This document shows positions 173 through 51,548 of a DNA stretch of 64,000 bases, piece by piece (position 1 is the first letter of the stretch; every line of letters begins with the position of its first letter). The position numbers and the translations under genes are program-made. The notes beneath the pieces are model-generated. The model was given only the letters and a program-made list of their open reading frames with translations. It had not been told where the DNA came from and did no database searches. Source of the DNA: a virus (lineage: Duplodnaviria > Caudoviricetes); the IMG/VR virus record IMGVR_UViG_3300025909_000005; one strand, 5' to 3'.

Positions 173-952
173 ATGAAAATTACTGAGCTTCTGGATTCTG
201 ATGTCGACCTGCGTGTCAAGATGGATACTGACCGGGTCTTCCGTGCCTACACTACTGTGAATGGCAGAAAGATCAACATCGACATTGAGAACAACCGGAA
301 GTACGGTTGGTCAGTCATGTTTGGTGAAGATGGCAACATCAGCAACGCCCCAACTGGAAACGGCGGCGCCCTTCAGGTCTACAGCGCAGTTGTCAAGGCC
401 ATTCAGCACGTCATTCAGAAGCATCACCCTGAGAAGATTACCTTCCATGGAATGAACGATACGGGCCAGGCCGCTGTCTACAAACGAATTGCGAGTCGAA
501 TCAAGGGCTACACCATCAAGTCGACTGAGATTACGGGTAGCACAAAGTTCGAGCTCGACAGAATTAGCGAGGGCCTTGGAGATCTGGCGAAGGCAACTGA
601 CGAGGCGCCGAAGGCTGAGCAAATGTTCAGCCACGTTGTCAGCATGATGAAGAAGTTTACGGCGAAAGGTGCCCATGTCGAAGTCGTAGACTTCAAACGT
701 CCCTTCATTGAGTTCTTCGTGATCACAGGCGAGGACTTCGATCACGCCAAAGACAAGGACAGGCGTAAGATGTTTCCAACGGTAGCTGAAGTAGAAGCTG
801 AGATGGGCCCGTTCTTTCGCAAGGTGATTCGACTGGCCGATAGCGGCAACTTTGACTACTCTGTCTACTACGCCGATCCGCGCCCATATGGGGAAGATGT
901 TGACGAACTCAAGGCGCTCTTCGCCCATAAATACCCAGACATCCTCATCTGA
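173..952 (+). CDS. Putative internal head protein, two modules
   Basis: MKITELLD N-terminal tag; domain shared with 28410..29540; internal ISE/GLGDLAK. Confidence 0.6.
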   Translation: MKITELLDSDVDLRVKMDTDRVFRAYTTVNGRKINIDIENNRKYGWSVMFGEDGNISNAPTGNGGALQVYSAVVKAIQHVIQKHHPEKITFHGMNDTGQAAVYKRIASRIKGYTIKSTEITGSTKFELDRISEGLGDLAKATDEAPKAEQMFSHVVSMMKKFTAKGAHVEVVDFKRPFIEFFVITGEDFDHAKDKDRRKMFPTVAEVEAEMGPFFRKVIRLADSGNFDYSVYYADPRPYGEDVDELKALFAHKYPDILI

Positions 953-958
953 GACATC

Positions 959-1438
959 ATGAAACTCTCTGAAATCAAGCTCTTTGAAGAGCCCATCGAA
1001 ACCAAGAACGCGGAAGACGTGTGGGCTGAGGGCGAGGGCGACGCTGCTTCGTACATCACTTCTACAGTCTACTACGTCAAGCCAGCTGCCAAGGCAGGCT
1101 ACTTTGATGTCACGTACGATGATGACAACGATCAACGCAAGACGTACGGCACCATGACCAAGCAGGACTTGGATTCTGCCTTCACGCCTCTGCGTGGCAA
1201 TCAAAAGGCCGACGCGGAGGGCTACCTCCAGTACCGGTCAGGCGACGTCTACGACGCGTTCAAATACCAAGGCGACCCAGTTCGCGTGAACCTCGGCGCT
1301 GCTGGCAAGGACAAGGACATCGTCGTGCTAATGAACAAGGGTGACTACCTGCTTCGCCAGACGTCAGGTGACAACTTCATCTACACCGTCGAGAAGGCCA
1401 ACTACTTCGACAACGGCTACGTAAAGAAGACATCATGA
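959..1438 (+). CDS. Hypothetical protein with MKLSEIKLFEE tag
   Basis: 159 aa ORF; TAAATA at 928-933 upstream; KGDYLLR motif loosely like PGDYG-family proteins. Confidence 0.55.
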   Translation: MKLSEIKLFEEPIETKNAEDVWAEGEGDAASYITSTVYYVKPAAKAGYFDVTYDDDNDQRKTYGTMTKQDLDSAFTPLRGNQKADAEGYLQYRSGDVYDAFKYQGDPVRVNLGAAGKDKDIVVLMNKGDYLLRQTSGDNFIYTVEKANYFDNGYVKKTS

Positions 1439-1764
1439 AAATCTCTGAACTCTTAGAAAGCCGCCGTGGTCGTCCGGATCCTGACAACGTCATGATGGCA
1501 AACATGTCGTCTGCACGACTAAAGTGGAAACAATCCGAGAAGCATGGTCCAAAATGGACTTTTATTGATCTTGCTGGTAGGTTTGGCGTCTCAGTGCAAA
1601 ACCTTAAGGCTCTGGTTAGGTCACATCCAGGATTTCCTGAAACAGCAATGAAAACAAGCGGCAACACCACCTCTAATCCCGCGCGCTATTATGATCTTCG
1701 AGATGCGGTGAAGTGGTGGAATTCAATCAAAGATCAAGTTGATCCAAAAATGCTTGAGGATTGA
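1435..1764 (+). CDS. Excisionase/AlpA-like helix-turn-helix protein with MKISELLES tag
   Basis: DLAGRFGVSVQNLKALVRSHPGFPE...ARYYDLRDAVKWW resembles a MerR/Xis-type winged HTH. Confidence 0.55.
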   Translation: MKISELLESRRGRPDPDNVMMANMSSARLKWKQSEKHGPKWTFIDLAGRFGVSVQNLKALVRSHPGFPETAMKTSGNTTSNPARYYDLRDAVKWWNSIKDQVDPKMLED

Positions 1765-1766
1765 AT

Positions 1767-3818: not shown

Positions 3819-4210
3819 TCACCTTCAAGCAGTTTCTCGAGGCTGACCTCTCAAAGCTGGCCAAGGACGTCGACAGTGAGAAGGGAAACCTCAAGCTCAC
3901 GTACGATGAGTTTCGCCAGTTTCAAGACGTCATCCCCTTCGTAGAGAAACCGGACAGCTGGGATCACATCGACGAGCATACGGTTCCAAGGTCGACGATC
4001 GAGAAGATTGAGAAGTCACTGGGCTTCAAGCTTGAGACCTTCACCGTGAAGGAGCTGTTCGGTAAGTCAAGCTTGCCAAATGGTCCGCTGGCTGATGCGC
4101 ATTGGCCTGAGAATACCTACATGGGCATCCTCGAAACAGACCGTGGCTCCTACATCTTCAACACTACAGGCGCTCGCTCGTACGTTCGTTTCTGGGCAAA
4201 GATCAAATGA
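3815..4210 (+). CDS. Putative internal head protein, MITFKQFLE tag
   Basis: GTG start overlapping the upstream TGA; CTS-like N-terminus. Confidence 0.6.
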   Translation: MITFKQFLEADLSKLAKDVDSEKGNLKLTYDEFRQFQDVIPFVEKPDSWDHIDEHTVPRSTIEKIEKSLGFKLETFTVKELFGKSSLPNGPLADAHWPENTYMGILETDRGSYIFNTTGARSYVRFWAKIK

Positions 4211-4608
4211 AGCTCGGCCAACTCCACGAAGCGAGTGCGCTGTCACGAATCAAGGACAGTGTGCCTCATGATACGGTAGTTGCGCATCAGACATTCTGGG
4301 CAACGGCGCGCGCCGACTACATGAACCTGCTTGTCAAGATGATTGAGAGTGCCGGCTTTACAGATGCAGAGTCTGACTTCAAAGACGATGCAGCAACCTT
4401 CAGCGGTGATACCATCGAAGCCAAGCTGCATGGTACGTATCCCGTTTATTTCCATCTCTCAGAGTCAGGTGCAAGTTTTGTTGAGGTAGAAGCAGTCCTG
4501 TTTGGTGGTGAACACGTGTTCAGACAGAGGAATGTCAAGGACCTGAAGAAGTGCTTCGCTGAAATCGAGAGCTATGCTCGAGTGAATGGACCCGACGAGG
4601 ACGACTGA
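4207..4608 (+). CDS. Hypothetical protein, MKLGQLHEAS tag
   Basis: ATGA overlap; tag similar to 14559 and 44469. Confidence 0.55.
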   Translation: MKLGQLHEASALSRIKDSVPHDTVVAHQTFWATARADYMNLLVKMIESAGFTDAESDFKDDAATFSGDTIEAKLHGTYPVYFHLSESGASFVEVEAVLFGGEHVFRQRNVKDLKKCFAEIESYARVNGPDEDD

Positions 4609-5294
4609 TGATCCTAAGTGAAGTTGTCGACATTCACGATGTCAACTCCTCTGCTGAAAAGTGGGGCGACCTCATCGTCAAGAACTGCAAGCCGTTCCTT
4701 GCACTGGCTGGTGGCAAGCCGCTCTACCGTGGCATCCACCGCAGCAACATTGGTGGCCTGGCAACAATCACACCTCGCACTGATCGCAAGCCAATGGACA
4801 CAAAGCCCGAGGTTCAAAAGGGACTTGACAGGTACTTCGAGAAGAAGTATGGCGTCAAGCCCCGCACAGAAGGTCTGTTCACGACAGGTGACAGTCACAA
4901 CGCTGCCTCCTTCGGCCAGGTCTGCTACCTCTTCCCGCTTGGGGAGTTCAAGTACTTCTGGTTCTACGACAAGCGGTTCAAGGAAGTTCTTCGTGACACG
5001 GTCCGACTGACGCGCCACATTCGCCTTCGTGGTGATGCGCGCATCTACGACCGCGAGGACAGTGAGGAAGAACAGGAAGACCTGGCCGACTTCATTAGCC
5101 ACACGTTCAGCAAGGACGGCCCGTTTGAGATTCGTACAGACAACTTCAAGCAGGCACTGCAGTCTGGCGCGGAAATCATCGTTGTCTGCCGGCGCGCCTA
5201 TGCCGTTCCTCGCTACATTGGTGGCGACAATGGACAGGGCTTCTTTGAAGTTCACTACGACACGCTGATCCACCCTGAGGATTACCAAGAGTAA
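4608..5294 (+). CDS. Member of a five-gene paralog family, ADP-ribosyltransferase-like
   Basis: CKPFL..LYRG, TEGLFTTG, ASFGQVCYLFP, SGAEIIVVC shared with 37069, 37737, 48814, 52310. Confidence 0.5.
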   Translation: MILSEVVDIHDVNSSAEKWGDLIVKNCKPFLALAGGKPLYRGIHRSNIGGLATITPRTDRKPMDTKPEVQKGLDRYFEKKYGVKPRTEGLFTTGDSHNAASFGQVCYLFPLGEFKYFWFYDKRFKEVLRDTVRLTRHIRLRGDARIYDREDSEEEQEDLADFISHTFSKDGPFEIRTDNFKQALQSGAEIIVVCRRAYAVPRYIGGDNGQGFFEVHYDTLIHPEDYQE

Positions 5295-7215: not shown

Positions 7216-7219
7216 TGGT

Positions 7220-7243: not shown

Positions 7244-7252
7244 CCCGTGCGC

Positions 7253-7576
7253 TCACCACTGCTGCGGGTCTTCAATCTCAACCCAGTGCTTCGCGTCTTT
7301 TTTGTAGATGAAGTGAGTTGAACTAGTTCGATCAACCTCAGTTCCGTCGGGTTTGTATGTCTCGTCGTTTCCGAAGCCCTTACGCTGCCCGATCCAGCCC
7401 TCGAGATGATAGAGGGAGTTCCATTGGTCGTACCACGCATGGATCGTGAATTGAGAAGGCTCGTACTTGCCGACCGCCAAGCACCATTCAGCCATGCGTT
7501 TGCGGAACTTCGCAGCCATCCCGGCTGGAAGCTTGGTCGGTGGCTCTACAGTCTTGGCAAGGTCTTTGAGTTTCAT
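7253..7576 (-). CDS. Hypothetical late protein, MKLKDLAK start
   Basis: Minus-strand TAAATA at 7582-7587, 5 nt before ATG. Confidence 0.6.
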   Translation of the reverse strand: MKLKDLAKTVEPPTKLPAGMAAKFRKRMAEWCLAVGKYEPSQFTIHAWYDQWNSLYHLEGWIGQRKGFGNDETYKPDGTEVDRTSSTHFIYKKDAKHWVEIEDPQQW

Positions 7577-7590
7577 GCCGGTATTTAGGA

Positions 7591-13738: not shown

Positions 13739-14359
13739 ATGAAGTCCATCCTCCTCGTTGAAGACCTGACCCCAGTTCAGACCGCTCTTCGCGAACAACG
13801 TACCGCCTCTGGCGAGCTCTTCCTGAACGGCATCATGATGCAGTCTGAGCTCAAGAACGGCAACGGCCGTGTCTACCCATTGGCTGAGATCTCCCGTGCG
13901 GTGGACGAAGCTGCAAAGCGAATCGCCGAAGGCAACCCGATCATGGGCGAGCTGAACCACCCTGACGTTCTCTCGATCAACCTGGACCGCGTCTCGCACA
14001 TCATCACCGAGGTCCGCATGGACGGCAACAACGCCATCGGCAAGATGAAGCTCCTGAACACCCCAACTGGCCAGATCGCCCGCGGTCTGATCGAAGGTGG
14101 TGCACGTCTAGGTGTCTCTTCCCGTGGTACCGGCAACGTGAACGAATCTGGCGCGGTCTCTGACTTTGCCTTCGTAACTGTCGACATCGTTTCCCAGCCA
14201 TCGGCACCTGACGCCTACCCGAACGTGGTTCGTGAGGCCATGGAGAACAAGAAGATCCTGAGCCTGGCAGAAGCCGTCGTTCACGATCCGAAGGCACAGG
14301 CCTACTTCAAGAAGGAAATGTCCCTGTTCCTCGAGGCCATCACCAAGGGTAAGAAGTGA
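13739..14359 (+). CDS. gp21: Prohead core protease (T4 gp21-like)
   Basis: NGNGRVYP, GELNHP, GVSSRGTG, TVDIVSQPSAPDAY. Confidence 0.95.
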   Translation: MKSILLVEDLTPVQTALREQRTASGELFLNGIMMQSELKNGNGRVYPLAEISRAVDEAAKRIAEGNPIMGELNHPDVLSINLDRVSHIITEVRMDGNNAIGKMKLLNTPTGQIARGLIEGGARLGVSSRGTGNVNESGAVSDFAFVTVDIVSQPSAPDAYPNVVREAMENKKILSLAEAVVHDPKAQAYFKKEMSLFLEAITKGKK

Positions 14360-14562
14360 ACCTCCAAGAAGCACGCAAGTTGGCTGGTCTCCAGGAAGCC
14401 AAGAACATGAAGAACCCAAAGGTCGATGCAATGGTCGAGAAGCTCATGGGTTCCTGGAAGAAGATGTCCGAGCCAGAGTGCCAGACAGAGGTTGCCAAGC
14501 AGCTTCGTGCGGCCTACTCTGAAGGCTACAAGGACGGCTACAACGATTCCCCGAAGAAATGA
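14356..14562 (+). CDS. Small hypothetical head-region protein
   Basis: MNLQEARKLAGLQEA; GTGA overlap. Confidence 0.5.
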   Translation: MNLQEARKLAGLQEAKNMKNPKVDAMVEKLMGSWKKMSEPECQTEVAKQLRAAYSEGYKDGYNDSPKK

Positions 14563-14888
14563 AGCTGCGTGAGCTGCACGAGAGCGCCCTCTCCAACATG
14601 AAGGCAGCTCACGCCGATCTCGTCGAGGCCGCGGAGAAGATCAAGAAGTGGATGCTTCAGTCCATGGAGAAGAAGGACTGGGATCTTGAGGGCATCAAGG
14701 ACAAGGAAGTCCATGTCTACCATGATGTCGATTACGGTTTCCTTATAGGACACGTCACTTGGCGCGGTAAGGACGATCCTGAACACATTGAACATTCCTA
14801 CACGGCAGTTTTCAACCTTGACGGCACCCTCTCAGCTGACACCAGCCACGGCTATGATCCGCCTCACGGGCTTGAAAAAGTCATATGA
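14559..14888 (+). CDS. Hypothetical protein, MKLRELHES tag
   Basis: Tag plus head-cluster position. Confidence 0.55.
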   Translation: MKLRELHESALSNMKAAHADLVEAAEKIKKWMLQSMEKKDWDLEGIKDKEVHVYHDVDYGFLIGHVTWRGKDDPEHIEHSYTAVFNLDGTLSADTSHGYDPPHGLEKVI

Positions 14889-15691
14889 AATTTACCGATC
14901 TCCTTGAAGCTTCCGAACCGAAGCAGAAAGTTGGCACTTCTAACTTTGCCAAGATGTCACGTGAGCAGAAGAAGGAGTACAAGGCCATCTATTCCATGCC
15001 TGACGACACCAAGGAAGACGAGGAGGCTCACTACGCCGCGCTGGCTGCCTACGAGGAAAAGTGGCAGATCGGCAAACACGCTAAGCCGACACCTCCCAAG
15101 TTCAAGATCGGTGACTTTGTTGAAGCCAAGGGGGAGCTCGGTGTCATCACGGGCATTGACCACCAGCCGCCAGACGAGCACAACGACTACGAGCAACCTG
15201 AGATTGGCTATGACATCAAGTCGTTCGATGGTGACATTTACGCCGATGAGTCTGCCGTAAAGAAGGCAGCACGTCCAAAGCTTGATGTACATCGCTTCAA
15301 CGGCACTTCACGTGGTGCACTGGACATTCTTCAGCGCGCCATCACTAGTGGTCTATCCTACCATCTTGGCGGAACCCCAAAGAAGAAAAGCAAAGGCACT
15401 TCTGCTCTGTCACGAATGCTTGACGACTACCACCACCTGCTAGGCAACTGGACTTTCCAGGTTGACAGGGATCCCGAACATAGCCATGCCTGGCTTATCA
15501 CTGTCGCAAACACCAAAACAAAGAAGTATTTCGTTGGAATCTTCTACACGAAGGACCACCCAGACTTTGATGAAGACGAGTTTGTGGACGGCTTTGGCTC
15601 CAGTGAGAAGCAAATTTTTAAGGCGCTCGAGCATGCAGGCAGCCGTGACATTGCCCGTGAGCTCTGGGAGTGCGGCTACACTCCGGAATGA
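14885..15691 (+). CDS. Hypothetical protein, MKFTDLLEAS tag, central SH3/KOW-like segment
   Basis: PKFKIGDFVEAKGELGVITGID. Confidence 0.55.
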   Translation: MKFTDLLEASEPKQKVGTSNFAKMSREQKKEYKAIYSMPDDTKEDEEAHYAALAAYEEKWQIGKHAKPTPPKFKIGDFVEAKGELGVITGIDHQPPDEHNDYEQPEIGYDIKSFDGDIYADESAVKKAARPKLDVHRFNGTSRGALDILQRAITSGLSYHLGGTPKKKSKGTSALSRMLDDYHHLLGNWTFQVDRDPEHSHAWLITVANTKTKKYFVGIFYTKDHPDFDEDEFVDGFGSSEKQIFKALEHAGSRDIARELWECGYTPE

Positions 15692-16101: not shown

Positions 16102-17007
16102 ATGGACGAAATTCTGAACAAACTGCTTCAGTCCGAGCTTCTCAGCGAAGAAACAAAGGCTGAAATCTCCGAGCAATGGACCGCATCGGTCGAAGCCTTC
16201 AAGACCCAGGTCCGTGAAGAAGTTTCGGGTGAAGTGCGTGCAGAGCTCGCCAGCCAGTGGATTACCGAACGCGACGAGCTCATCAGCAAGGTTGATGAAT
16301 TCGTGGCCGAGGCGCTGACCAACGAAATCGAAGAACTCAAGGGTGACATCGAACGCTTCCGCGATCTGGAAGCCGAGTACGCTCTCAAGCTCGTCGAAGA
16401 AAAGCACAAGATGGCCGGCGAAGTCGCCCAGGAGCTTGACGCTCTTGTCGACAAGATCGACCAGTTCTTTGAGATGCGTCTCGCAGCCGAGATGGAAGAG
16501 CTCAAGGAAGACATCGAAGTAGTCAAGCAGAATGACTTCGGTCGCAAGATCTTTGAAGCATACGCTCAGACCTACGCAACCAACTATGTTGACGACGACT
16601 CGGTTCAGTCCAAGCTCGTTGTTGCTGAATCGAAGCTTGAAGAAGCCGAAGCTCAGCTTGCAGCTCTCGAAGAAGAGCGCAACAAGATGATTCGCGAAGC
16701 GAAGATGGAACAAGTTCTGTCGCCGCTGACTGGCAAGAAGCGCGAACAAATGGCCATGGTCCTCAAGAATGTGGACACTGGTCGTCTGGAAGAATCCTAC
16801 AAGTTCTTCATCAGCCGCATCCTCAAGGAAGACGACTCGTCGGCACCAGCCGCCAAGCCGCTGACCGAGGCTGCTAAGCCGGTTCAAACCACCGTTGCAA
16901 CGGGCGATAAGCCAGTTGCTCCAGCGCCTACTGACAGCGCTCCAACCGCTCTTCAAGAGCACCTGGCTCGCGTCCGCAGCCTCGCAGGTCTCACCAAGAC
17001 TGCCTAA
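16102..17007 (+). CDS. gp22: Prohead core scaffold protein (T4 gp22-like)
   Basis: Acidic coiled coil, FGRKIFEAY, directly upstream of the major capsid gene. Confidence 0.85.
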   Translation: MDEILNKLLQSELLSEETKAEISEQWTASVEAFKTQVREEVSGEVRAELASQWITERDELISKVDEFVAEALTNEIEELKGDIERFRDLEAEYALKLVEEKHKMAGEVAQELDALVDKIDQFFEMRLAAEMEELKEDIEVVKQNDFGRKIFEAYAQTYATNYVDDDSVQSKLVVAESKLEEAEAQLAALEEERNKMIREAKMEQVLSPLTGKKREQMAMVLKNVDTGRLEESYKFFISRILKEDDSSAPAAKPLTEAAKPVQTTVATGDKPVAPAPTDSAPTALQEHLARVRSLAGLTKTA

Positions 17008-17024: not shown

Positions 17025-18293
17025 ATGACACTTATCGAAAACTGGTCTGAGACCAAAGAGGCCCTGCTCGAAGGACTCTCCGGCTCGAAGCGCACCATCG
17101 TCGCGACTCTGATGGAAAATCAGAAGAAGATCTTCGAAACGGCACCGGCTAACGCTGTCGTTTCTGCGGACGTAGCAACGTTCCAGAAGATCATGATTCC
17201 GATGATCCGCCGTATCATCCCTGGCACGATCGGCGGCGAGCTCGTCGGCGTTCAGCCAATGACCGGCCCAACGGGTCTGATCTACACGCTGCGTTTCGCA
17301 TTCGCAGAACCAGTTGATGCCCCAGGCACGCTGCACGACATCACGCCAGGTGACGAAGCTTTCGTCTACAACGGCAAGATGAAGCGCTTCTACTCGGCTG
17401 CCAATGTCGGCACCGCTGGCTACCCACCAAGCCTCACGGCCAACACGTCTGACGGTTTCGCCGCCAAGACTGAGGACTACGAAGGTTACGGCGGTCGTCA
17501 GATGCGCCTCTCCGTTCTGAAGCAAGCTGTCAACGTTGGCACCCGCAAGCTGCAAGCTCGCTGGACCATGGAAGCTGCGCAGGACATGAACGCACAGCAC
17601 GGCATCGACATCGAAAGCGAACTGACTGCAGCTCTCGCCGCTGAAATCGCCCACGAAATCGACAACGAAATCCTGACCGACCTGCTCGCTCTGGCTTCGA
17701 CGACGGCTACGTACGACTTCGCAAACCCAGCTCCAGGCTTCTCGCCGAACTACATCGGCGACCGTTACGCTGAACTCGGTATCCTGATCAACCAGATGGC
17801 CAACGAAATTGGTGCACGCACCAAGCGCGGTCCTGGTAACTGGATCGTCGGCGGTCACCTGATCACCTCCATCCTCCAATCCGGTTCGCGCTCGGTCTTC
17901 GCACCAGCAATCTCCGGTACGTTCGATGCTCCAACCGGCAACCGCCTGGTTGGTACCCTCAACGGTGGTATCAAGGTCTACACCTACAACTGGGGTCTGA
18001 ACGACAACTACGACTGGATGTCCGGTGGCGTGAACACTGCATCCGGCTCGACCGGTGAAGACGTTCTGATCGGTTACAAGGGCGGCAACTCGGAGCTCGA
18101 CTCCGGTTACTTCTACTGCCCATACGTGCCGCTCATGAGCACCGGCCAGGTCATGGACGCCAACACGTTCATGCCAGCAGTTTCGCTCTCGACTCGTTAC
18201 GGCAAGGCAACGTTCACGAACGCTGCAACGTCGTTCGGTAACTCCGCTGATTACTACGCTCGCGTACTGGTCCGCAACGTCGCTTTCTCGTAA
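17025..18293 (+). CDS. gp23: Major capsid protein (T4 gp23-like)
   Basis: ELVGVQPMTGPTGLIYTLRF, RKLQARWTMEAAQD, EIDNEIL, GYFYCPYVPL, TRYG. Confidence 0.97.
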   Translation: MTLIENWSETKEALLEGLSGSKRTIVATLMENQKKIFETAPANAVVSADVATFQKIMIPMIRRIIPGTIGGELVGVQPMTGPTGLIYTLRFAFAEPVDAPGTLHDITPGDEAFVYNGKMKRFYSAANVGTAGYPPSLTANTSDGFAAKTEDYEGYGGRQMRLSVLKQAVNVGTRKLQARWTMEAAQDMNAQHGIDIESELTAALAAEIAHEIDNEILTDLLALASTTATYDFANPAPGFSPNYIGDRYAELGILINQMANEIGARTKRGPGNWIVGGHLITSILQSGSRSVFAPAISGTFDAPTGNRLVGTLNGGIKVYTYNWGLNDNYDWMSGGVNTASGSTGEDVLIGYKGGNSELDSGYFYCPYVPLMSTGQVMDANTFMPAVSLSTRYGKATFTNAATSFGNSADYYARVLVRNVAFS

Positions 18294-28413: not shown

Positions 28414-29540
28414 AGATCAATGAGCTCTTCGATCAGGAGGACCATGATGGCGACTCGACGTCTTCGAGCTTCGGCTACCATGTGACCAAAAAGATTGGTG
28501 ATCGCCTTCTTCAGTTTGAGGCTGCTCGCAGTGGTGAAACATGGGAGGTTTCATTTGGTCAGAAGATGCCGAATGGCGCGTTGAAGTACCAGCTCACCAA
28601 GACTGGTGATGAAATTCAAGTCTTCAGCTTCATCGTCTCTGCAATGCGGAGCTTCGTGAAGAAGTACCAGCCAAAGCGCATTCAGTTCAGCGTACGCAAG
28701 ATTGAGGGCTCACGCGCCTCGCTCTACCGCAAGCTCGTTGACCGCTTCCTGAAGGACTCTTACTGGAAGCAGGAGTACGAGATCGGTCTGGGATCTGCGG
28801 AAAAGTACGTACAGTTTGACCTCATCAAGAAGCCGACATCAGAGAGCCTTGATGAAGCGTTCGACAAGGCGACGAAGTACAAGGTAGTGACCCACAACAA
28901 CCACGAGTTCTGCGCCGAGTTTGAGTCTAATGGCAGGACCATTCGCGTCGACATCGAAGAGATGGGCGGCAACTTTGGCTGGGACATTGGCTTCATCGAG
29001 AAGTCAGGTAAGAACGGTGGTATGGGGGACTGGGCCGCGACTGGCAGCGGCGGTGAGTTGGAGGTCTTCGCGACTGTTAAGGCCATTGTGCATCAGTTCC
29101 TCCAGGAGTACAAGCCAAAGAAGATCGGCTTCGCGTCAGATCGAAGCGAGCTTAGCCGTGGTAAGCTCTACGATCGGTTCGTGAAACGTGGCATGTTTCC
29201 TGGCTATCGCCTGATCAAGAGGACTGATGACCCACGACAGATCTACGACAAGTGGGTTTTGGTTCGTGATGATTTGGATGAAGGCATGATGAAGCGGTCA
29301 AACCCCTTCGTCAGCGGAGAGCTTGAGCTGCCGAAGACGAGGGAGCGAAGCGTCGCTCCTACACCGGTCTCAACGAACGTTCGCGTTGAGAAGATGCTGA
29401 AGAATCTGGCTCAGCGTGCCAATGTCGACGTCTCTGTCGTTCGCAAGGCGCGTGACGAGATCATGAAGGACGTCGACTCGAAGCACCCAAACCGCTGGAA
29501 CATCATCATGTCCCGGCTGAACCGTCGCCTCGGCCTGTAA
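28410..29540 (+). CDS. Putative internal head polyprotein with a tandem-duplicated domain
   Basis: MKINELFD tag; two copies of the domain in 173..952, separated by LDE/A; further LDE/G. Confidence 0.6.
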   Translation: MKINELFDQEDHDGDSTSSSFGYHVTKKIGDRLLQFEAARSGETWEVSFGQKMPNGALKYQLTKTGDEIQVFSFIVSAMRSFVKKYQPKRIQFSVRKIEGSRASLYRKLVDRFLKDSYWKQEYEIGLGSAEKYVQFDLIKKPTSESLDEAFDKATKYKVVTHNNHEFCAEFESNGRTIRVDIEEMGGNFGWDIGFIEKSGKNGGMGDWAATGSGGELEVFATVKAIVHQFLQEYKPKKIGFASDRSELSRGKLYDRFVKRGMFPGYRLIKRTDDPRQIYDKWVLVRDDLDEGMMKRSNPFVSGELELPKTRERSVAPTPVSTNVRVEKMLKNLAQRANVDVSVVRKARDEIMKDVDSKHPNRWNIIMSRLNRRLGL

Positions 29541-32575: not shown

Positions 32576-32589
32576 CGAGCTATTTACGC

Positions 32590-35132: not shown

Positions 35133-37072
35133 TGGCTGATCCAAATAAGTCACTGTACGAACCAACGGAACATCGAACCACTCTCGATGAGTGCGCAGAT
35201 GCGGCCGGCTCGTTCAACAACCCGAACACACCAAACTCGGGCCTGCCACCGATTCCAGCTGGCACTATTCCAAGCCCAGGTGGTGGTGTTGTCACGCCTC
35301 CAAACGTCTACGTTCCACCTGACATCTGCATTGGTGACTTCACCATCTCGCAGAACGAGTGTGCGATCAACGATAGCAACTACCAGCAGTCACTCGCTGC
35401 TCAGCAGTTGGCCATCTCTGGTGCACCGCTGAACGTTTTCAAGCTGCTCGGCAATCATGAACAGGGAAAGCTGATTGACCTCGTTGGTCACGGCCACGCA
35501 ATTGGCTCTGACGATACCTCAATGGCCTTCGACGAGCTTGCTGGTGAGTGGACCTCCTCAGTCACCGGCCTCGCTGTCACGCAGACGCCTGCCTATGTTG
35601 GCTACGATTTCGGCTACCGCCTCACGTCTTACGGCCAGCTTGAGAACGCCAAGGGACAGCCGGCAGACCAGCACATCACCTCGATCCGAATCACACAGGG
35701 TCCAGACGCCAACACCCGCGCCCTTCAAGTTCGTGTCGATCGCTCTGACGGTGACTTCATCATGGGCACGCCGATCTACACCGCGACTGGTAACGGCACG
35801 GTCACTCGCTTCAGCCAAGGCATTGACACCAAGCCAGGCGCGTTCATGCTCTTCGCGACGTCGCCTACCAAGTTCAGCGTCATGTGGACCGGAAATGGCA
35901 CCTACATTCTAGGTGACGCCACAGTCGGTCAGATGTTTGACTCCAAGCACGGCTCGTTCGTCATCGCTCCTGGCACCATTCCATTTGCTGCAGGCGACGC
36001 CATCTCGGTGCCCATCCAGCTCGAGTGGAAGCGCGTTGACGTAGTGAACCTTCCGAACGTTGCAACTCCTGCCCTGATTCGTATCAAGCAGTCGGCACCA
36101 TCTCGCTTCTGGCGCATCGTCCCGACCTCATTTGCTGGTGTAACCACGAACTCTCCTTGGGTCGTTGAGAAGCTCGAGCTCTTTGACTACCAAGCCACGA
36201 TGCTCACGGACATCCAGGACCCGCTGTTCATGGAGAACCGAGACCGCGACTACGCGAAGACCTCCATCCAGCTGAAGGTTGCCTACACTCCATTTGACGC
36301 GGTCTCTGACCTCACGAAGTTCGGCTTCCAGGTCGCAGACATCTACAGCTTCACGACGACCTTCGCCACCATGGTTGAAGCTCTAGGCCGCCCAATTGTT
36401 GTTGGTGACGTGCTTGAGCTTCCATCCGAGATGCAGTGGGACCAGAACATGCGTCCCGTTCGCAAGTTCCTCGAGGTCACTGACGGTGGCTGGGCAGCGG
36501 ACGGCTACACCACAGGCTGGCAGCCAATCATCTACCGCTTCCAGGCGCAGCAGCTCATCCCAGGTCAGGAGCACCGTGACCTGCTTGGCACCCTTGACAC
36601 GCAGAAGTACGTCGTCGATGACGGCCGCTTCTTTGATGGCATCGAACAGATCTCCACTGGCTACCTCACGGCCATGGAGAACAACGAAGCTGAAGCTCGC
36701 AAGGCAGTTCCAGAAACGGGCACGAACGTTCGTGAAGCCGCCTCTGGTACGAATCGCTTTAACCAGCCCGGCTCCTACGACGGCGTTGGCGTCTACGTCG
36801 AGGACGGTCTGCCACCAGATGGCCATGAATACAAGACAGGCTTCGACAAGCTGCCGGATGTCGCTGAGGCCAACGACGGCGACTACTTCCGCCTGGAGTA
36901 CTCACCTGAGCGCAACCTTCCAGCTCGCCTCTACAAGTTCAGTGGAGTCAAGAACCGCTGGATCTTTGTTGAGACTGACCGTCGCAACCAGCGTTCGTCG
37001 CACACCCCATCACAGCGCGAAATCTTTGCTCTTGACAAGCAGTTCTCGCCAACAGCCAAGAAGATCTCATGA
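35132..37072 (+). CDS. gp14: Neck protein (T4 gp14-like) with inserted beta-sandwich domains
   Basis: ISGAPLNVFKL, ENRDRDY, DLTKFG, GRPIVVGDVLELP; follows gp13. Confidence 0.7.
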   Translation: MADPNKSLYEPTEHRTTLDECADAAGSFNNPNTPNSGLPPIPAGTIPSPGGGVVTPPNVYVPPDICIGDFTISQNECAINDSNYQQSLAAQQLAISGAPLNVFKLLGNHEQGKLIDLVGHGHAIGSDDTSMAFDELAGEWTSSVTGLAVTQTPAYVGYDFGYRLTSYGQLENAKGQPADQHITSIRITQGPDANTRALQVRVDRSDGDFIMGTPIYTATGNGTVTRFSQGIDTKPGAFMLFATSPTKFSVMWTGNGTYILGDATVGQMFDSKHGSFVIAPGTIPFAAGDAISVPIQLEWKRVDVVNLPNVATPALIRIKQSAPSRFWRIVPTSFAGVTTNSPWVVEKLELFDYQATMLTDIQDPLFMENRDRDYAKTSIQLKVAYTPFDAVSDLTKFGFQVADIYSFTTTFATMVEALGRPIVVGDVLELPSEMQWDQNMRPVRKFLEVTDGGWAADGYTTGWQPIIYRFQAQQLIPGQEHRDLLGTLDTQKYVVDDGRFFDGIEQISTGYLTAMENNEAEARKAVPETGTNVREAASGTNRFNQPGSYDGVGVYVEDGLPPDGHEYKTGFDKLPDVAEANDGDYFRLEYSPERNLPARLYKFSGVKNRWIFVETDRRNQRSSHTPSQREIFALDKQFSPTAKKIS

Positions 37073-37740
37073 TCACCTTCAAGCAATTTCTACTTGAGCA
37101 GGACGACCCTGATCTCTTCCAAGTCCTTGAGCGCGATTGCGCTGACTTCCTGCATCAGTCGCAGCGGGTAGGACTGATCTATCGTGGCATTCAAGAGACG
37201 TCTCTTGCCAACCACCATGACTACGCTATCCACGATGCTGGGCACCATGGCCCCATTGAGATGTGGGAAAAGCTCGTCAAGGGTCAGGGTGGTCGATCAA
37301 GTCGCCGGCCTCGTGATTCAAGCTCGTCACAGCACGATGCAGCTGATGCTTGGTTCGAACAGAAGTTTGGTGTCTACGCCCGCTCAAAGTCACTGTTCGC
37401 TAGTGGAAACAAGCACGCCCTCTCTGACTACGGTGACACCTACATCGTGTTGCCAAAGGGCCACATGAACGTCATCTGGTCCCCGAAGGTTGATGACATG
37501 TACGGCCACTTTGAGACTGGAGAATGGGGCAAGATTCGTCAGGGACTCCGGATGGGTTCCGTTTCTGAAGAGGAATTTTGGCACCAAATTGGCATGGACC
37601 TCGACGATCAGGACTACCGTGAAGGTGACCTTCCAGCAGGTATCAAGTCAGGCAACGAGCTCATGATTCAGTGCAACTCGTACTACATCATTCCAGTCGC
37701 TGATGAAGCAGCGATAAAGCGCGGGCTCAAGATCGAATGA
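37069..37740 (+). CDS. ART-like paralog with MITFKQFLLE tag
   Basis: IYRG, RSKSLFASG, YGDTYIVLP, SGNELMIQC. Confidence 0.5.
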   Translation: MITFKQFLLEQDDPDLFQVLERDCADFLHQSQRVGLIYRGIQETSLANHHDYAIHDAGHHGPIEMWEKLVKGQGGRSSRRPRDSSSSQHDAADAWFEQKFGVYARSKSLFASGNKHALSDYGDTYIVLPKGHMNVIWSPKVDDMYGHFETGEWGKIRQGLRMGSVSEEEFWHQIGMDLDDQDYREGDLPAGIKSGNELMIQCNSYYIIPVADEAAIKRGLKIE

Positions 37741-38366
37741 AGACGTTCAAGCAGTTCATTTCTGAGGCGCAGTTCGATGACATCGATGCGGCCGTAGATG
37801 AGATCCTCCACCACTGTGGACCATTTCTTCATGAGTCTCGTCGCAAGGGTTTCCTGCAGCGTGGCATGCAGGGACTTGACCTTACGCCGTGGGATGACAA
37901 GTCGGTCCCATACGTTATCAAGAAGGTGAACAAAGAACGCGTACCACGTCGAGGTGCCGGCCTGAACGCCATCGAGCACAAGGTCGTTGACGACTTCCTC
38001 CACGACAAGCTCGGCATTCGTGGTCGTTCTCAGGCGATGTTCTGCATTGGCCAGTCTGAGAAGGGAACGCAGAAGGCCAGCCAGTTTGGTACGCCGTACA
38101 TCGTCTTCCCGATCGGTGACTTCAAGTACGTGTGGTCGCCTGAGGTCTTTGACATCTTTGGCCAGCTTCACTACAAGAGTGAGGACCCTGAAGAGCAGAA
38201 GAAAGAGATTGAGACCTGGCTGGAGGGCAAGAAGTACCGCACGACGGGCCTTGATCAGGCGGTGAAGTCTGCGAATGAGATCATGATCGACTGCGAGACG
38301 TACTACGTCTTCAGTAAATACATGTGGGCCCACAAATTCCGAACAAAACTAGGCATCGGCCTCTGA
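37737..38366 (+). CDS. ART-like paralog with MKTFKQFISE tag
   Basis: LQRG, RSQAMFCIG, FGTPYIVFP, SANEIMIDC. Confidence 0.5.
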   Translation: MKTFKQFISEAQFDDIDAAVDEILHHCGPFLHESRRKGFLQRGMQGLDLTPWDDKSVPYVIKKVNKERVPRRGAGLNAIEHKVVDDFLHDKLGIRGRSQAMFCIGQSEKGTQKASQFGTPYIVFPIGDFKYVWSPEVFDIFGQLHYKSEDPEEQKKEIETWLEGKKYRTTGLDQAVKSANEIMIDCETYYVFSKYMWAHKFRTKLGIGL

Positions 38367-43881: not shown

Positions 43882-44472
43882 ATGAACCTTACCTTCAAAG
43901 AATACCTGCAAGAAGAAGCCGTTGGCAACTTCAACGAGAACGAGCCACGCCACGTCTCTGACGAGTTCGTTCGTGGCGGTCGACCGCTCAACAAGGCGGC
44001 GATCAAGGAGCTGAAGGGTAAGGGGATCCAAACGGTCATCTGCCTGCTTCGCGCAGACAAGAAGTACCCAGCTGAGATCTCAGGCGTCGAAGCCGAGAAG
44101 GAAGCTGTCGAAGCTGCAGGCATGAAGTTCGTTTCCATCGATATGGACGAACGTAAGAACCCATCTGAAGCGGACATCAACAAGTTCCTGGCCGCCGTGA
44201 AGAGCGGCGGTAAGTCGTACGCGCACTGCTCCGCAGGTCGAGACCGAGTCGGCCTGATGAACGCGATCTACGACATGAAGGTCCTGCACATGTCCTACAA
44301 GGACGCGTACACCCGCTACCTCAAGGGTGGCCATGACTACGCAACCTGGACCAACCTCGACAAGTTCTTCTACAAGTACGCGCACGGCACACCTGAAGCC
44401 GCGAAGGACGCGATCGAAGCAGGCGCCCACCCAGCCGACGCGAAGTGGCTGTACCAATACATCACAGAATGA
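43882..44472 (+). CDS. Dual-specificity/tyrosine phosphatase-like protein with MNLTFKEYLQEE tag
   Basis: FVRGGRP, GIQTVICL, AHCSAGRDRVG (Cx5R); TAAATA 43871-43876, 5 nt before ATG. Confidence 0.85.
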   Translation: MNLTFKEYLQEEAVGNFNENEPRHVSDEFVRGGRPLNKAAIKELKGKGIQTVICLLRADKKYPAEISGVEAEKEAVEAAGMKFVSIDMDERKNPSEADINKFLAAVKSGGKSYAHCSAGRDRVGLMNAIYDMKVLHMSYKDAYTRYLKGGHDYATWTNLDKFFYKYAHGTPEAAKDAIEAGAHPADAKWLYQYITE

Positions 44473-45374
44473 AAGTCTCAGAACTTCTTGAGGCAAGCGC
44501 CCTTGGTCGTCTCAAGGTCGACATCGACAAGCACAAGCCAGAATTCGCTGACTTCTTCGAGGATCCAACAGATGAGTCGGCTGTGGGCAAGGGCATTCGT
44601 GCAATTGCCAAGAAGTATGGTCTCACAGTCACGCTGTTCATTCGCCGAAACAAAGCTGCAATTGTCTACTCGATCAAGCTAACCTTAACCGCGGCCGCAG
44701 AAAAGGCACTGCTTGCCAAGACAGGTGCAGAGTATGGTGTGTACAGCTTGCCAGACGGTTCACCTGAGCGCGAGGAGCAGGACGCTGCTTGGGTCCGATA
44801 CGCCGCTGAATCTAACGAGATGAAGGACAAGTTCTGGAACGAGCTGCCACGTCATGCAGGTGTTTCCACGAAGCCGGACGTTTTCTTGAAGTATGAAGGA
44901 TCAAACACAGAGGGTGAGATGCGCTTCGACACAGGAGAGGTAGAGGCTGCTGCGTTTGCCGCACAGGCTGGCGGTGGTATCCTTCTCAAGGACACGGATA
45001 AGAAGATCAGCCTGGACCACATAGAGTACCACAGGCAATATGGGAATGAACCATTCCACTTGGTCTACGTTTCTGGTGACGCCTCGCAATTGAAGAAGGT
45101 CAACAAGGTGCTGAAGCGACTGAGCGAGGAAGGTCACAATGGTGATATCGCGCTGTCACCTGCAAATCAAGAGAAGGTCGCAGAGCTTGCAGGCATCACA
45201 GAGAAGACGAAGCGCTACTACCAGAACTACATGGATCACGACAACTATAACAAGCTTGTTCCCTCGGGCGTCATGATACGCGTCTTCAAGAACGGTCAGA
45301 TCCCTAAGATGTACAAGACTGGCAAGACGCTGAAGATCACAGCAGAAGACTTTCTCAAGGTATTCCCTACCTGA
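44469..45374 (+). CDS. Hypothetical protein, MKVSELLEAS tag
   Basis: ATGA overlap; tag. Confidence 0.6.
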   Translation: MKVSELLEASALGRLKVDIDKHKPEFADFFEDPTDESAVGKGIRAIAKKYGLTVTLFIRRNKAAIVYSIKLTLTAAAEKALLAKTGAEYGVYSLPDGSPEREEQDAAWVRYAAESNEMKDKFWNELPRHAGVSTKPDVFLKYEGSNTEGEMRFDTGEVEAAAFAAQAGGGILLKDTDKKISLDHIEYHRQYGNEPFHLVYVSGDASQLKKVNKVLKRLSEEGHNGDIALSPANQEKVAELAGITEKTKRYYQNYMDHDNYNKLVPSGVMIRVFKNGQIPKMYKTGKTLKITAEDFLKVFPT

Positions 45375-46784: not shown

Positions 46785-47245
46785 TGGCAGCAGTTCGCGG
46801 CGCAATGCGAGGACGGTTCTCACCAAAGAACCCAGGTAAGTACGTTGGCAACGTCAACAACATCCTTTTTAGAAGTTCCTGGGAACTTCGCTTCATGATC
46901 TGGCTCGACACGACTCCAGCTATTCTGCGCTGGGGCTCTGAAGAGATGGCCATCCCGTACGTGAACCCGATCAAGAGCGCCGAACGCGGCAAGGTCGTGG
47001 TCTCACAGTACTACCCTGACTTCGTCGTCATGTACAAGGACCGCCTCAACCAGATTCAGAAGGAGATCGTTGAGGTCAAGCCGTTCAAGGAATCCGTCAT
47101 GACTCCTGGCATGTCAGAGCGTGACAAGATGGCCTATGCCGTCAATCAAGCCAAGTGGAAGGCCGCAGCCACCTTCGCCGAATCTCAGGGCGCAAAGTTC
47201 CGCGTCATCACTGAGAAGACGATGTTCAAGCAAGGACGCATGTGA
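46784..47245 (+). CDS. gp4: Head completion nuclease (T4 gp4-like)
   Basis: PKNPGKYVG, FRSSWELRFM, WGSEE..IPY, YYPDF, EVKP, NQAKWKAA. Confidence 0.9.
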   Translation: MAAVRGAMRGRFSPKNPGKYVGNVNNILFRSSWELRFMIWLDTTPAILRWGSEEMAIPYVNPIKSAERGKVVVSQYYPDFVVMYKDRLNQIQKEIVEVKPFKESVMTPGMSERDKMAYAVNQAKWKAAATFAESQGAKFRVITEKTMFKQGRM

Positions 47246-47598
47246 AAATCAATGAATTGATTGAGGGACTTGCCAAGCTGCAATCCTCCTACCGAGAACT
47301 GTTCAAATTCAGCCCAGATATGTCCGATGAAAAGATTGCAGACCACCTTGATCGTGTGGGCCATCAATTTGATTTGAAGGTGTATCCGATTGAGACTTGG
47401 CGTAGCACATATGTAGCTGATGAACTTACCATTGGTGCAGCTTCTTCAGACATCGAATCAGCTGAATTCAAGAAAAAGCTGACGGACTTCGTTCGCGACG
47501 CCAATGAGGGCGCCAAGCTTTCTAAGGCAGGATTTAGTTTGCATGTAAGCGGCGTACATGCTTGGCGCCAGGCCACTGTCACAATTGAGAGGTCATGA
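47242..47598 (+). CDS. Hypothetical protein, MKINELIEG tag, lower GC
   Basis: GTGA overlap; tag. Confidence 0.55.
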   Translation: MKINELIEGLAKLQSSYRELFKFSPDMSDEKIADHLDRVGHQFDLKVYPIETWRSTYVADELTIGAASSDIESAEFKKKLTDFVRDANEGAKLSKAGFSLHVSGVHAWRQATVTIERS

Positions 47599-49626: not shown

Positions 49627-50000
49627 TTACCTTCAAGCAGTTTCTAGAAGGGCTGAAGGACCTGGCGAAAGATGCTGATGAGAACCCACCCATTGTGCCT
49701 GTCGTTATGCTTGACGTTCTCAAGTCTCAGGCCGAGAAAAGCAAGTACAAAATGCAGATCACCAATGCCGATCCTAAGAAGGCCGAGCTGCACTTTGAGT
49801 ATCGAGATGAGAATCACATCACTCTGATGACAAGCGTGTTCTTCTACCCTGATAGAACGTCCATGCAATGGGGACGCTGGGGCGGCGGGCACTCAGGAAA
49901 CCAGTCCTTCGATCACAGCGAGTACGGCACGCCTACCGAACTGGCGCGTGTCATCCTTCATCGACTTCACTACGTGGCAGATCTTCTGTACGGACAATGA
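49623..50000 (+). CDS. Putative internal head protein, MITFKQFLE tag
   Basis: GTGA overlap; EGLKDLAK. Confidence 0.6.
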   Translation: MITFKQFLEGLKDLAKDADENPPIVPVVMLDVLKSQAEKSKYKMQITNADPKKAELHFEYRDENHITLMTSVFFYPDRTSMQWGRWGGGHSGNQSFDHSEYGTPTELARVILHRLHYVADLLYGQ

Positions 50001-50737
50001 TCACCTTCAAACAATTCATCGATGAGAGCACCAACGACAAGGGCGTCCTCAAGGCCATCTTCGTCGTGGGTATTCCTGGTGCAGGCAAGACCTACACCAT
50101 TTCCCAAATCAACGGCCGCATCGCACCAAAGCTGGTCACGATGGACACAGCTGCTGAGTACCTGATCAAGAAGCTGGGCATCCCATCGACTGACGAGACC
50201 TGGCCAAAGATCGTCGACACAGCTCGCAAGATGACACTTGGATCCCTCTACTCCTACGTGAATGGCGTGCTGCCCCTTTTCGTCGACGGAACCCTCAACG
50301 ACATCTCAAACGTTCAGTCGCGCATCAATATTCTTGAGGACATTGGCTACGACATCGGCATGGTCTACGTGCACGCTGACCTGTACACTGCGAAGTCCCG
50401 GGCTGTAGCGCGGGCAAAGGTGAATGGTCGCCACGTCTCCGACGACTTCATTGAGAAGACGCACGCTGTCTCCGAGAAGAACAAGGAGCTGTTCATGAAC
50501 CGCTTCTCGTTCTACAAGGAGGTTGACAACAGCTCGGGCGCCATGGACAATGAGGCGCTGCTGAAGATCTACCGGGCCGCTCAGGGTTTCTACAGTGAGC
50601 CAGTAAAGAACGAACGTGGTCAAGGAGTCCTTGAGAAGCTTAAGAGCGAGAAGCAGGGCTACCTCGTACCGACGATCTATCAGAAGGAAGACCTTGCCGA
50701 AAAATTGGCTGGCTGGTACAAGGGCGGACGTAAATAA
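49997..50737 (+). CDS. Zeta-toxin/AAA_33-like P-loop kinase with MITFKQFIDE tag
   Basis: FVVGIPGAGKT, LFVDGT, GYDIGMVYV, ARAKVNGRHV. Confidence 0.75.
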   Translation: MITFKQFIDESTNDKGVLKAIFVVGIPGAGKTYTISQINGRIAPKLVTMDTAAEYLIKKLGIPSTDETWPKIVDTARKMTLGSLYSYVNGVLPLFVDGTLNDISNVQSRINILEDIGYDIGMVYVHADLYTAKSRAVARAKVNGRHVSDDFIEKTHAVSEKNKELFMNRFSFYKEVDNSSGAMDNEALLKIYRAAQGFYSEPVKNERGQGVLEKLKSEKQGYLVPTIYQKEDLAEKLAGWYKGGRK

Positions 50738-50741
50738 CACC

Positions 50742-51548
50742 ATGAAAATTGATGAACTCCTGAACCCTTTGGTTCCACAGCCCCTCCTCGAGGGCCTCAC
50801 CCTGTCCATCTATGAGGACCTGATCCAGGACCTCATGCTTGAGGACGACGCGGCTGCACCTCCTGCTGACAGTAGCCCGCCTGCTGCAACTGGTGGCACG
50901 CTTGGAACGACTGCAACCACGCCGGTCGTGGACGGCAGTGGTTCACACAGCTGCGGCCCATACGAGATTGGGCACTGGGGTGGCGGTCCAATCGGTGTTG
51001 GTCCAGTCTTCGGTGGCATGTGGTTCAATCAACTCTACGCATCTGTCAAGCAGCTCATCACCGCAAAGCGTATCAAGACACGCATGAAGCAGATTGGCAT
51101 CTCAACGAAGGGTGCTGCTCGAGTTGAGAAGGCCGCAAAGGCGGCTGCAAAGAACGTGAAGGACCTGCTGTCCAACCCACGCAGCGTTGCCTACCAGACT
51201 CCGGTTTGGACGACGCAGAAGATGCCGAAGCCGATGCTTAAGAAGTGGAATGAACACTTCGGAGAAGAGTTCCAGAAGGAGCTTGCGAAGCTGACGGTAG
51301 ACGACCTCTTTGAAGGAGTGAACGCAAACGACCTAGCCACGCAGTGGCTAGGTGTCAAGTCACTCGGTGCTGCTCAACCGGCCCTGCGTAGCGAAGAGGA
51401 GCAGTTCCTCGACCGTGGCCGTCAGGTTAAGCGCCAGGTCATTGACACGCCGATGGGAAAGACAGTCGTCATTCTCTACCAGCTCGGTGACAAGAAGATG
51501 GTCCGTCTGGAAACTGCCGATCGAAAGATGAAGTCCTACGTGGCGTAA
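50742..51548 (+). CDS. Putative internal head protein, MKIDELL tag, multiple LxE sites
   Basis: TAAATA 50731-50736, 5 nt before ATG; LLE, IYE, MLE, LFE. Confidence 0.6.
   Translation: MKIDELLNPLVPQPLLEGLTLSIYEDLIQDLMLEDDAAAPPADSSPPAATGGTLGTTATTPVVDGSGSHSCGPYEIGHWGGGPIGVGPVFGGMWFNQLYASVKQLITAKRIKTRMKQIGISTKGAARVEKAAKAAAKNVKDLLSNPRSVAYQTPVWTTQKMPKPMLKKWNEHFGEEFQKELAKLTVDDLFEGVNANDLATQWLGVKSLGAAQPALRSEEEQFLDRGRQVKRQVIDTPMGKTVVILYQLGDKKMVRLETADRKMKSYVA

Follow-up and report, generated by a model that had tools for sequence, protein, structure and literature searches.

How many kinds of N-terminal signal does a jumbo phage use to send proteins into its head? The question is raised by a 64-kb stretch of DNA from the IMG/VR virus record IMGVR_UViG_3300025909_000005, called the window below (the whole stretch that was analysed). 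The window comes from a jumbo myovirus of soil and has nearly all its genes on the plus strand; a 376,619-bp contig carries the same proteins. Two short leaders recur at its gene starts: class 1, MITFKQFLxE, and class 2, eight residues of the form MK-I/L/V-x-E-L-L/F-E. An earlier note had proposed that class 2 is a second targeting or propeptide class for the prohead protease. The analysis established that class 2 is a real, lineage-wide N-terminal leader. With a probability of about 0.6, it is the aliphatic flavour of the phage T4 head-protein leader, of the type carried by gp24 and Alt, portable between proteins and removed by a Peptidase_S77 protease.

The class-2 leader and its bearers

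The peptides quoted in the earlier note at 173, 959, 1435, 4207, 4608, 14559, 14885, 28410, 44469, 47242 and 50742 were confirmed as the starts of real open reading frames (ORFs), and they are enriched far above chance. All eleven positions are start codons, the one at 47242 being GTG, and the ORFs opened there encode 109-376 amino acids (aa) beginning with the peptides as quoted. Seven class-2 starts overlap the upstream stop codon, six of them as ATGA or GTGA, which is the usual coupling in this genome; the overlapping starts include 1435, 4207, 14559, 14885, 28410, 44469 and 47242, and 4608 overlaps by one base. A separate assembly, with its genes called independently, has identical starts for 4207 and 4608. 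When all six frames were scanned for [MVL]K[ILVF]x[EDQ][LI] beginning at a start codon, ten matches were obtained on the plus strand, all of them 5' ends of real ORFs, and one on the minus strand (7576).

Enrichment was measured on genes called by a codon-usage score, with starts assigned without regard to the motif. Of the 88 genes of the window, 8 match. The number expected from the internal frequency of the motif is 0.07, and column shuffles (n=2000) gave a mean of 0.29 and a maximum of 3. Leaders were compared in five genomes: the window, the IMG/VR genomes G001, G003 and G004, and phage RsoM2USA. The four relatives have 15/469, 11/354, 11/460 and 33/469 matches, respectively, against shuffle means of 0.75-1.8; judged from T4, chance accounts for 1-3 matches per genome. 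The bias extends beyond the residues that the search pattern covers: residue 7 is hydrophobic in 65% of the matches against a background of 33%, residue 8 is acidic in 38% against 9%, and an acidic bias runs over residues 8-10.

The synonymous codons of the leaders vary and the DNA upstream is not conserved; therefore selection acts at the peptide level. The same variable synonymous sites and upstream sequence rule out that class 2 arises from a repeat or recombination cassette at the DNA level.

BLASTP showed the bearers to be mutually unrelated, except for 173 with 28410, and the cargo consists mostly of ORFans. Searches of Pfam and PHROGs with class-2 cargo matched only DUF6934 and phrog_16075, both for 173 and 28410, and gave just a sub-threshold Anti-RecBCD_p2 match for 14885. 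ESM Atlas had no usable match for 44469 or 14885, and no orthologue of 44469 was found in five related genomes. A hydrophobic residue (h) followed by x-E stands at residues 3-5 and/or 6-8 in ten of the eleven plus-strand class-2 genes (4608 included). This h-x-E site is mostly followed by A, S or G (P1'), and residue 8 is D in 173 and 28410.

Three candidates were set aside. Two had been listed as looser members by the earlier note: 13265 is MTLLLE on a GNAT acetyltransferase, outside the class, and 14356 (VNLQEARKLAGLQEA) carries a separate motif, xLxEAxKxAGL. The minus-strand match at 7576 is probably also out; MKLKDLAKTVE fits the pattern without h-x-E and is like an LKDLAK motif that follows other leaders.

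Further motifs lie behind the leaders (a slash within a peptide marks the predicted cut). The sequence E/(A)SAL[SG][RN][ILM]K follows the leader in three unrelated proteins (4207-4608, 14559-14888 and 44469-45374), and a G003 gene in the slot between protease and scaffold (116341-116598) has the similar LNE/ASAVSRVRE. A sister motif, L[KS][DK]LAK, is found behind the class-1 leaders of 3815 and 49623 and within 173 after RISE/G.

The head module and presumed leader cleavage

The window has a head module of T4 type, in which Peptidase_S77 occurs together with Portal_T4 and Gp23 (Table 1), and it also encodes neck, sheath, tube, terminase and fibre genes. The Peptidase_S77 protease (13739-14359) is presumed to be the enzyme that removes the leaders. 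The T4 protease gp21 cleaves after L/I-x-E; it cuts Alt at ITE-6, and gp24 loses a propeptide of ~10 residues. In the internal protein (IP) IPIII, the first ten residues are enough for targeting to the capsid; residues 4 and 7 are important in targeting, and residues 8 and 10 in processing (PMC9026906, PMC5694885). From the sequences, the L/I-x-E rule seems to hold in this clade. As the earlier note had pointed out, h-x-E occurs in the capsid precursor (ALLE/G and KIFE/T) and in the scaffold (PLTE/A), and the scaffold site is kept in seven relatives. The C-terminal region of the scaffold is variable, yet [LI]-x-E stands at one place in 8/8 sequences (the window and the seven relatives).

The T4 genome was read directly. 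Its leaders are MAKINELLRE in gp24, MELITELFDE in Alt, MELITELFDG in alt.-1 and MKTYQEFIAE in IPII and IPIII. A pattern covering both the aromatic and the aliphatic flavours picks out, in all of T4, only IPII, IPIII, gp24, Alt, alt.-1 and gp61.1. These leaders share the register h4, h7, h8, E10; those of the IPs are aromatic and those of gp24 and Alt aliphatic. The class-2 register of h3, h6, h7, E8 is the T4 register (residues 4, 7, 8) shifted by one. The T4 protein gp61.1 is a hypothetical protein of 54 aa (NC_000866 18966-19130(-)) whose gene adjoins primase gene 61; it starts with MKTFKEFIKED, a near-perfect capsid targeting sequence (CTS).

Because the class-2 leader resembles the piece that is cleaved from gp24 and Alt, class-2 proteins are most likely loaded into the capsid and clipped. 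In the mechanism that we propose, a short amphipathic stretch, M-K-h3-x-E5-h6-h7-E8, would front unrelated, fast-evolving cargo. First, the leader would bring the protein into the core of the assembling prohead. Second, the gp21-family protease would cleave after E5 and/or E8, at h-x-E followed by A, S or G. Third, the mature protein would remain in the head and probably enter the host with the DNA. Class 2 would then be a signal of the class-1 kind that has one residue less and Ile/Leu where class 1 has Phe.

Table 1. Leader-bearing genes, head genes and promoter-like motifs of the window.
Feature	Coordinates	Strand	Remarks
Class 2, MKITELLD	173..952	+	Cargo related to DUF6934 and 28410; TAAATAG 4 nucleotides (nt) before ATG
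Class 2, MKLSEIKLFEE	959..1438	+	Orthologues in G001, G003 and G004 keep leader
Class 2, MKISELLE/S	1435..1764	+	ORFan
Class 2, MKLGQLHE	4207..4608	+	Followed by ASALSRIK (second motif A)
Class 2, degenerate, MILSEVVD	4608..5294	+	ADP-ribosyltransferase-like (ART-like) cargo; paralogue of class-1 37069, 37737, 48814, 52310
Class 2, MKLRELHE/SALSNMK	14559..14888	+	Protease-scaffold slot
Class 2, MKFTDLLE/AS	14885..15691	+	ORFan; protease-scaffold slot
Class 2, MKINELFD	28410..29540	+	DUF6934 domain; block behind TATAATGG-type promoter
Class 2, MKVSELLE/ASALGRLK	44469..45374	+	
Class 2, (M)KINELIE/GLAKL	47242..47598	+	GTG start
Class 2, MKIDELLNPLVPQPLLE/G	50742..51548	+	TAAATAA 4 nt before ATG; G001 and G003 orthologues keep leader and LLEG
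Doubtful member, MKLKDLAKTVE	7253..7576	-	Pattern fits, without h-x-E
Class 1, MQTFRQFLEALDK	6820-7215	-	TAAATAG 5 nt upstream
Class 1, MITFKQFLxE, two ART-like paralogues (37069, 37737)	37069..38366	+	
Other class-1 starts	3207, 3815, 39155, 43876, 48083, 48814, 49623, 49997, 52310		
Portal (Portal_T4)	11532-13268		Profile match
Prohead protease, T4 gp21 family (Peptidase_S77)	13739..14359	+	92.5 bits, cut-off 27
Scaffold	16102..17007	+	C-terminal RxLAGL; [LI]-x-E site (PLTE/A) near C-terminus
Major capsid protein, Gp23 family	17025..18293	+	N-terminus MTLIENW...ALLE/G...KIFE/T
TAAATAG, putative late promoter	162..168, 1767, 15706, 20848, 33171, 43152, 45384, 55948	+	
TAAATAG, putative late promoter	7227, 32586	-	
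TAAATA-ATG cases	162-175, 7213-7227(-), 7574-7587(-), 43871-43884, 50731-50744, 32573-32586(-), 40636-40649		

Virion proteins of related phages

Megablast of 4.7 kb of the window against INPHARED gave no nucleotide match; the phage is therefore known only through protein-level relatives. By the tail-sheath protein, the nearest named phages are RsoM2USA of Ralstonia (57%) and PA5oct of Pseudomonas (43%), and further near ones are Stenotrophomonas CM1 and RAS14 and Xanthomonas XacN1. The closest IMG/VR relative is G001, a 349,660-bp contig with a major capsid protein identity of 89%.

Ten abundant virion bands of RsoM2USA were identified with liquid chromatography-tandem mass spectrometry (PMC8504454). 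Class-1 starts are found on three of the six bands other than capsid, sheath and named structural proteins: ORF89 (MKTFKQFLSE), ORF132 (MKTFKQFLNT) and ORF438 ((M)LTFKQY). The PA5oct annotation flags 93 proteins as virion components on the basis of electrospray ionization tandem mass spectrometry (PMC7318152). A class-2 pattern, ^M[KR][ILVF].[EDQ][LIFV], was set before this annotation was looked up, and nine PA5oct ORF starts fit it. Six of the nine are virion-flagged, against 93/445 overall (Fisher p = 0.0035): EST35_0150, which lies directly after the portal gene, and EST35_0205, 0230, 0238, 0380 and 0381. This enrichment is the best direct support for proteins with class-2 starts being virion components; it has no bearing on cleavage.

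The XacN1 enzymes that are reported to be packed in the virion (lipase ORF279 and M23 peptidase ORF322) are without such a leader. RsoM2USA (MG752970) has, at ~171-214 kb, at least 34 paralogues of about 190-215 aa, nearly all of which start with MKLxEI or MRLxEI; this family has no Pfam match.

Genome context and promoters

For most tagged genes, G001 has either no orthologue or a highly divergent one, and the flanking structural genes are 65-89% identical. Such hypervariable slots between structural genes are the pattern of the internal-protein loci of T-even phages.

Nine copies of the sequence (c/a)aTAAATAG, which is similar to the T4 late promoter TATAAATA, are found on the plus strand, seven of them just upstream of a gene start; the clear cases are among the starts at 173, near 1802, 15742, 20876, 33189, 43204, 45411 and 55984. 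Five of the genes headed by it are structurally annotated (scaffold operon, neck, tube-like proteins, fibre), and a late sigma factor resembling gp55 is annotated in XacN1. Another motif that looks like a promoter, (TGT)TATAATGG(G), occurs at 18400, 24467, 29569, 31041, 43859, 61785 and 62791. It stands at the head of blocks of small non-structural genes and, within the tail module, of the pair 43876/44469, and in two cases GTGTACATC is found ~14 nt upstream of it. With both leaders pooled, tagged genes make up 19/58 of the genes behind TAAATAG and 3/31 of those behind TATAATGG (p = 0.02).

TAAATA followed by 4-7 nt and ATG is found in 7 cases against 0.13 expected, and five of these are starts of tagged genes. 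With such a spacing, a T4-like late promoter would produce late mRNAs that have no leader or hardly any. The true start of 43876 may be the second ATG (43882, MNLTFKEYLQEE).

A genuine minus-strand cluster occupies 6820-8699, where 7812-8699 and 7591-7977 have 55-66% homologues in G001; the plus-strand ORF at 8094-8504 is probably spurious.

Is the leader a capsid address?

Several observations weigh against class 2 being a capsid address. First, none of the ten abundant virion bands of RsoM2USA is a class-2 protein, and most class-2-like starts of this phage belong to its MKLxEI family, so that descent alone could explain them. Second, three of the nine PA5oct matches (EST35_0075, 0271 and 0382) were not detected in virions, and non-virion proteins, T4 UvsY for instance, match the short pattern too. 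Third, the earlier note had expected the leaders to be commoner on late genes, which is significant when both classes are pooled but not for class 2 alone (9/48 behind TAAATAG vs 2/30 behind TATAATGG, p = 0.19); 28410 and 44469 in fact sit behind the TATAATGG type of promoter. Fourth, class 1 is limited to the structural block in G001 and class 2 is dispersed. Four tandem class-2 genes of G001 (94315-96066(-)) lie directly upstream of primase and helicase genes; some other dispersed copies lie between genes for baseplate, fibre or giant virion proteins.

The leader might instead be an amphipathic helix that serves oligomerization, another partner or stability, or it might aid translation initiation through an AAA second codon and a weakly structured 5' end, and many of its bearers would then be non-virion proteins. 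Such a role is fairly unlikely. Neither the genes of the G001 cluster next to primase and helicase nor T4 gp61.1, which adjoins primase, are obvious head genes, and UvsY and the three PA5oct proteins fit a role outside the capsid. Most tagged genes have no Shine-Dalgarno sequence and are either translationally coupled or abut TAAATA; their 5' coding sequence could therefore matter for initiation. A general N-terminal bias is, however, no explanation, because column shuffles that keep the composition of each position give 0.3 matches against the 8-10 observed. The variation of synonymous codons also speaks against a role outside the capsid, as do the coincidence of the pattern with the protease rule and with T4 gp24 and Alt, and the virion enrichment in PA5oct. 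In addition, the leader is exchanged with the class-1 leader, which is found on virion proteins verified by mass spectrometry. A capsid address cut by the prohead protease is thus the reading that we prefer.

One leader or two?

The cargo of class 1 includes an amidoligase (39155), a kinase like zeta-toxin and AAA_33 (49997), a DSP phosphatase of the polymorphic-toxin type (43876) and the ART-like paralogues. The tagged proteins of the five genomes were clustered by cargo after removal of the leader. The ART-like family (4608, 37069, 37737, 48814 and 52310 in the window) has five class-2 members in G001 and G003, and both genomes have class-1 members as well. The DUF6934 family (173 and 28410) is mainly class 2 and has one class-1 member. 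In one homologous pair, 167317 of G001 is class 2 and 36499 of G004 is class 1; of two paralogues in RsoM2USA, ORF88 is class 2 and ORF89 class 1.

A word-based homologue search with 4608 gave just 2 relatives, and an exhaustive profile search of public metagenomes, used instead, gave 9,515 cluster representatives at E <= 0.001. The best 150 of the 9,515 include 140 short proteins, the leaders of which are class 1 in 93, class 2 in 19 and other in 28, the last being mostly intermediates of the form M-[RK]-L-x-x-[YF]-[LI]-x-E. In this best-scoring set, nearly every member has the general leader M-(x)-basic/T-h-x-x-h-h-x-E. The family displays a graded series: MITFKQFLxE, MRFKQFLxE, MRLQQFINE, MKLREYLIE and MKLRELFESE. 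Since intermediates link the two classes and the general form is near-universal in the family, the classes would be flavours of one leader. To judge from the sequence comparison, a single degenerate leader of T4 type that comes in flavours is more likely than two separate systems. The flavour appears to differ between lineages, to go by the leaders compared. XacN1 (AP018399) has an intermediate form, MRFVQYLIE / MRFTSYLIE, on ORF314 and ORF352.

Tag swapping, which had been invoked for 4608, is not needed; divergence via intermediates explains the paralogues, and MILSE is a degenerate form. The earlier proposal of two docking sites or two ejection stages is made less likely by the graded intermediates. 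What stands of the earlier note is a propeptide for the same protease, to which the unrelated bearers, h-x-E, the T4 analogy and, indirectly, the PA5oct proteomics point.

The ART-like label of the 4608 cargo is plausible but unproven, because the matches to the ADP-ribosyltransferase fold are weak (Z 4-4.8). Residues R41, R60, R86 (in an R-S/T context) and E189 are invariant in 76 sequences of the family, which have the R-S-E order. The AlphaFold2 model of 4608 has a mean confidence (pLDDT) of 85. Its residues 1-8 lie outside secondary structure, and the leader is at a mean pLDDT of 51 over residues 1-10 and < 50 over residues 1-4. Foldseek against PDB gave no clear match for the model. All VIA-align matches were below the noise guide: Arr (Z 4.8), AvrPphF ORF2 (4.8), diphtheria toxin (4.7), and exotoxin A, Spx and cholix toxin (~4.0). 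The family profile matched no PDB sequence and no Pfam family, and hhalign against T4 Alt gave a probability of 0.1, with no similarity. The ART-like domain also occurs inside giant multidomain proteins, such as one of 2,645 aa with five matched stretches, recalling polyvalent proteins.

A distinct second address, in which class 2 would serve another docking partner (shell vs scaffold core) or another ejection stage, is rather improbable. The leaders of the window do look discrete, ~11 of each with MILSE as the sole intermediate. Class-1 cargo is mostly recognizable enzymes and class-2 cargo consists for the most part of small ORFans, of which two lie in the protease-scaffold slot, and the G001 distribution separates class 1 in the structural block from scattered class 2. 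A third motif at the N-termini of slot genes, the scaffold-C-terminus-like xLxEAxKxAGL, hints at more than one docking mode. Against a second address, homologous cargo carries either leader and graded intermediates occur in the family of 9,515 representatives. Moreover, the aromatic (IP) and aliphatic (gp24, Alt) leaders of T4 have the same register and the same protease.

The resemblance behind the third motif lies between the C-terminus of the scaffold (..LxxxRxLAGL) and the N-termini of slot genes, VNLQEARKLAGLQEA (14356-14562) in the window and MLTLNEALKIAGLP in relatives. The latter is found four times in tandem in L007 (7295-8680), and the slot genes of relatives with scaffold-like N-termini are L007:7295-8680, L010:7794-8051, L016:6521-7033 and L023:8002-8211. 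Judging by this similarity, xLxEAxKxAGL may be a shared shell-docking helix and a third leader type.

It is also conceivable, with quite a low probability, that the leaders form a small address code, the flavour setting the place, copy number or exit order in the head. An aromatic leader would then mark enzymes for ejection. An aliphatic leader, often with an ASALSRIK/LKDLAK helix, would mark small proteins of the core or internal body, and xLxEAxKxAGL, common to the scaffold C-terminus, would dock to the shell.

Finally, an artefact of chance matches, starts chosen to fit or simple paralogy is very improbable: the pattern is short, 173 and 28410 are related, and taking the first GTG as the start would place 44469 and 50742 within longer ORFs, but the motif-blind start rule still gives 8/88 against 0.3 expected, ATGA overlaps and the independent gene call back the starts, the cargo is unrelated, and four other genomes have the same enrichment.

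Significance

If the leader works as proposed, the 64-kb window alone would encode about twenty tagged head proteins, about ten of class 2 and about eleven of class 1, a repertoire many times the handful known in T4. The gp24/Alt-type propeptide would be a portable address like the IP CTS. A simple sequence rule would then predict which proteins are packaged, and probably injected, by uncultured T4-like and Rak2/XacN1-like jumbo phages; candidates are ART-like enzymes, kinases, phosphatases and many ORFans, possibly with anti-defence roles. The rule would bring a few false positives per genome from the short pattern, and some bearers lie outside structural modules. For engineered phages that deliver proteins, the leader could also serve as an alternative and shorter tag. 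The literature search yielded no paper on tag repertoires of this kind in the clade.

Comparison with known systems

The closest likeness is to the propeptides of T4 gp24 and Alt (MAKINELLRE/S and MELITE/LFDE). Both systems have h-x-E-L-L/F-x-E at the extreme N-terminus, an L/I-x-E site and a Peptidase_S77 head module. T4 Alt is an ADP-ribosyltransferase-type cargo delivered in the head, and the window has an ART-like cargo, which has no sequence similarity to Alt. There are differences. Class 2 has MK-h rather than M-x-K-h, with E at 5 and 8, and it is carried by about ten unrelated ORFans, whereas T4 has one vertex protein and one enzyme. The gp24 and Alt propeptides are known as cleavage products and not as portable targeting signals.

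The CTS found on T4's internal proteins is similar in being a leader of ~10 residues on unrelated, fast-evolving proteins at variable loci, with hydrophobics at i, i+3 and i+4 followed by x-E. The protease gp21 cleaves it, and only the IPIII CTS has been shown to suffice for targeting. The T4 CTS is aromatic (Y4, F7) and far closer to class 1, which is aromatic and keeps the T4 register; class 2, with Ile/Leu/Val, is the aliphatic form, and a shift makes it one residue shorter.

The jumbo phages phiKZ, 201phi2-1 and SPN3US also load many proteins into the head and have a gp21-related protease that cuts after Glu. Their propeptides, however, are 80-130 residues long and are cut at S/A/G-x-E (small P3), with no short shared leader described. 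The phage of the window stands on the Rak2/XacN1/RsoM2USA side with a T4-like L/I-x-E rule, unlike the phiKZ type. On these comparisons, class 2 is best regarded as an extension of the known T4 mechanism and not as a new mechanism.

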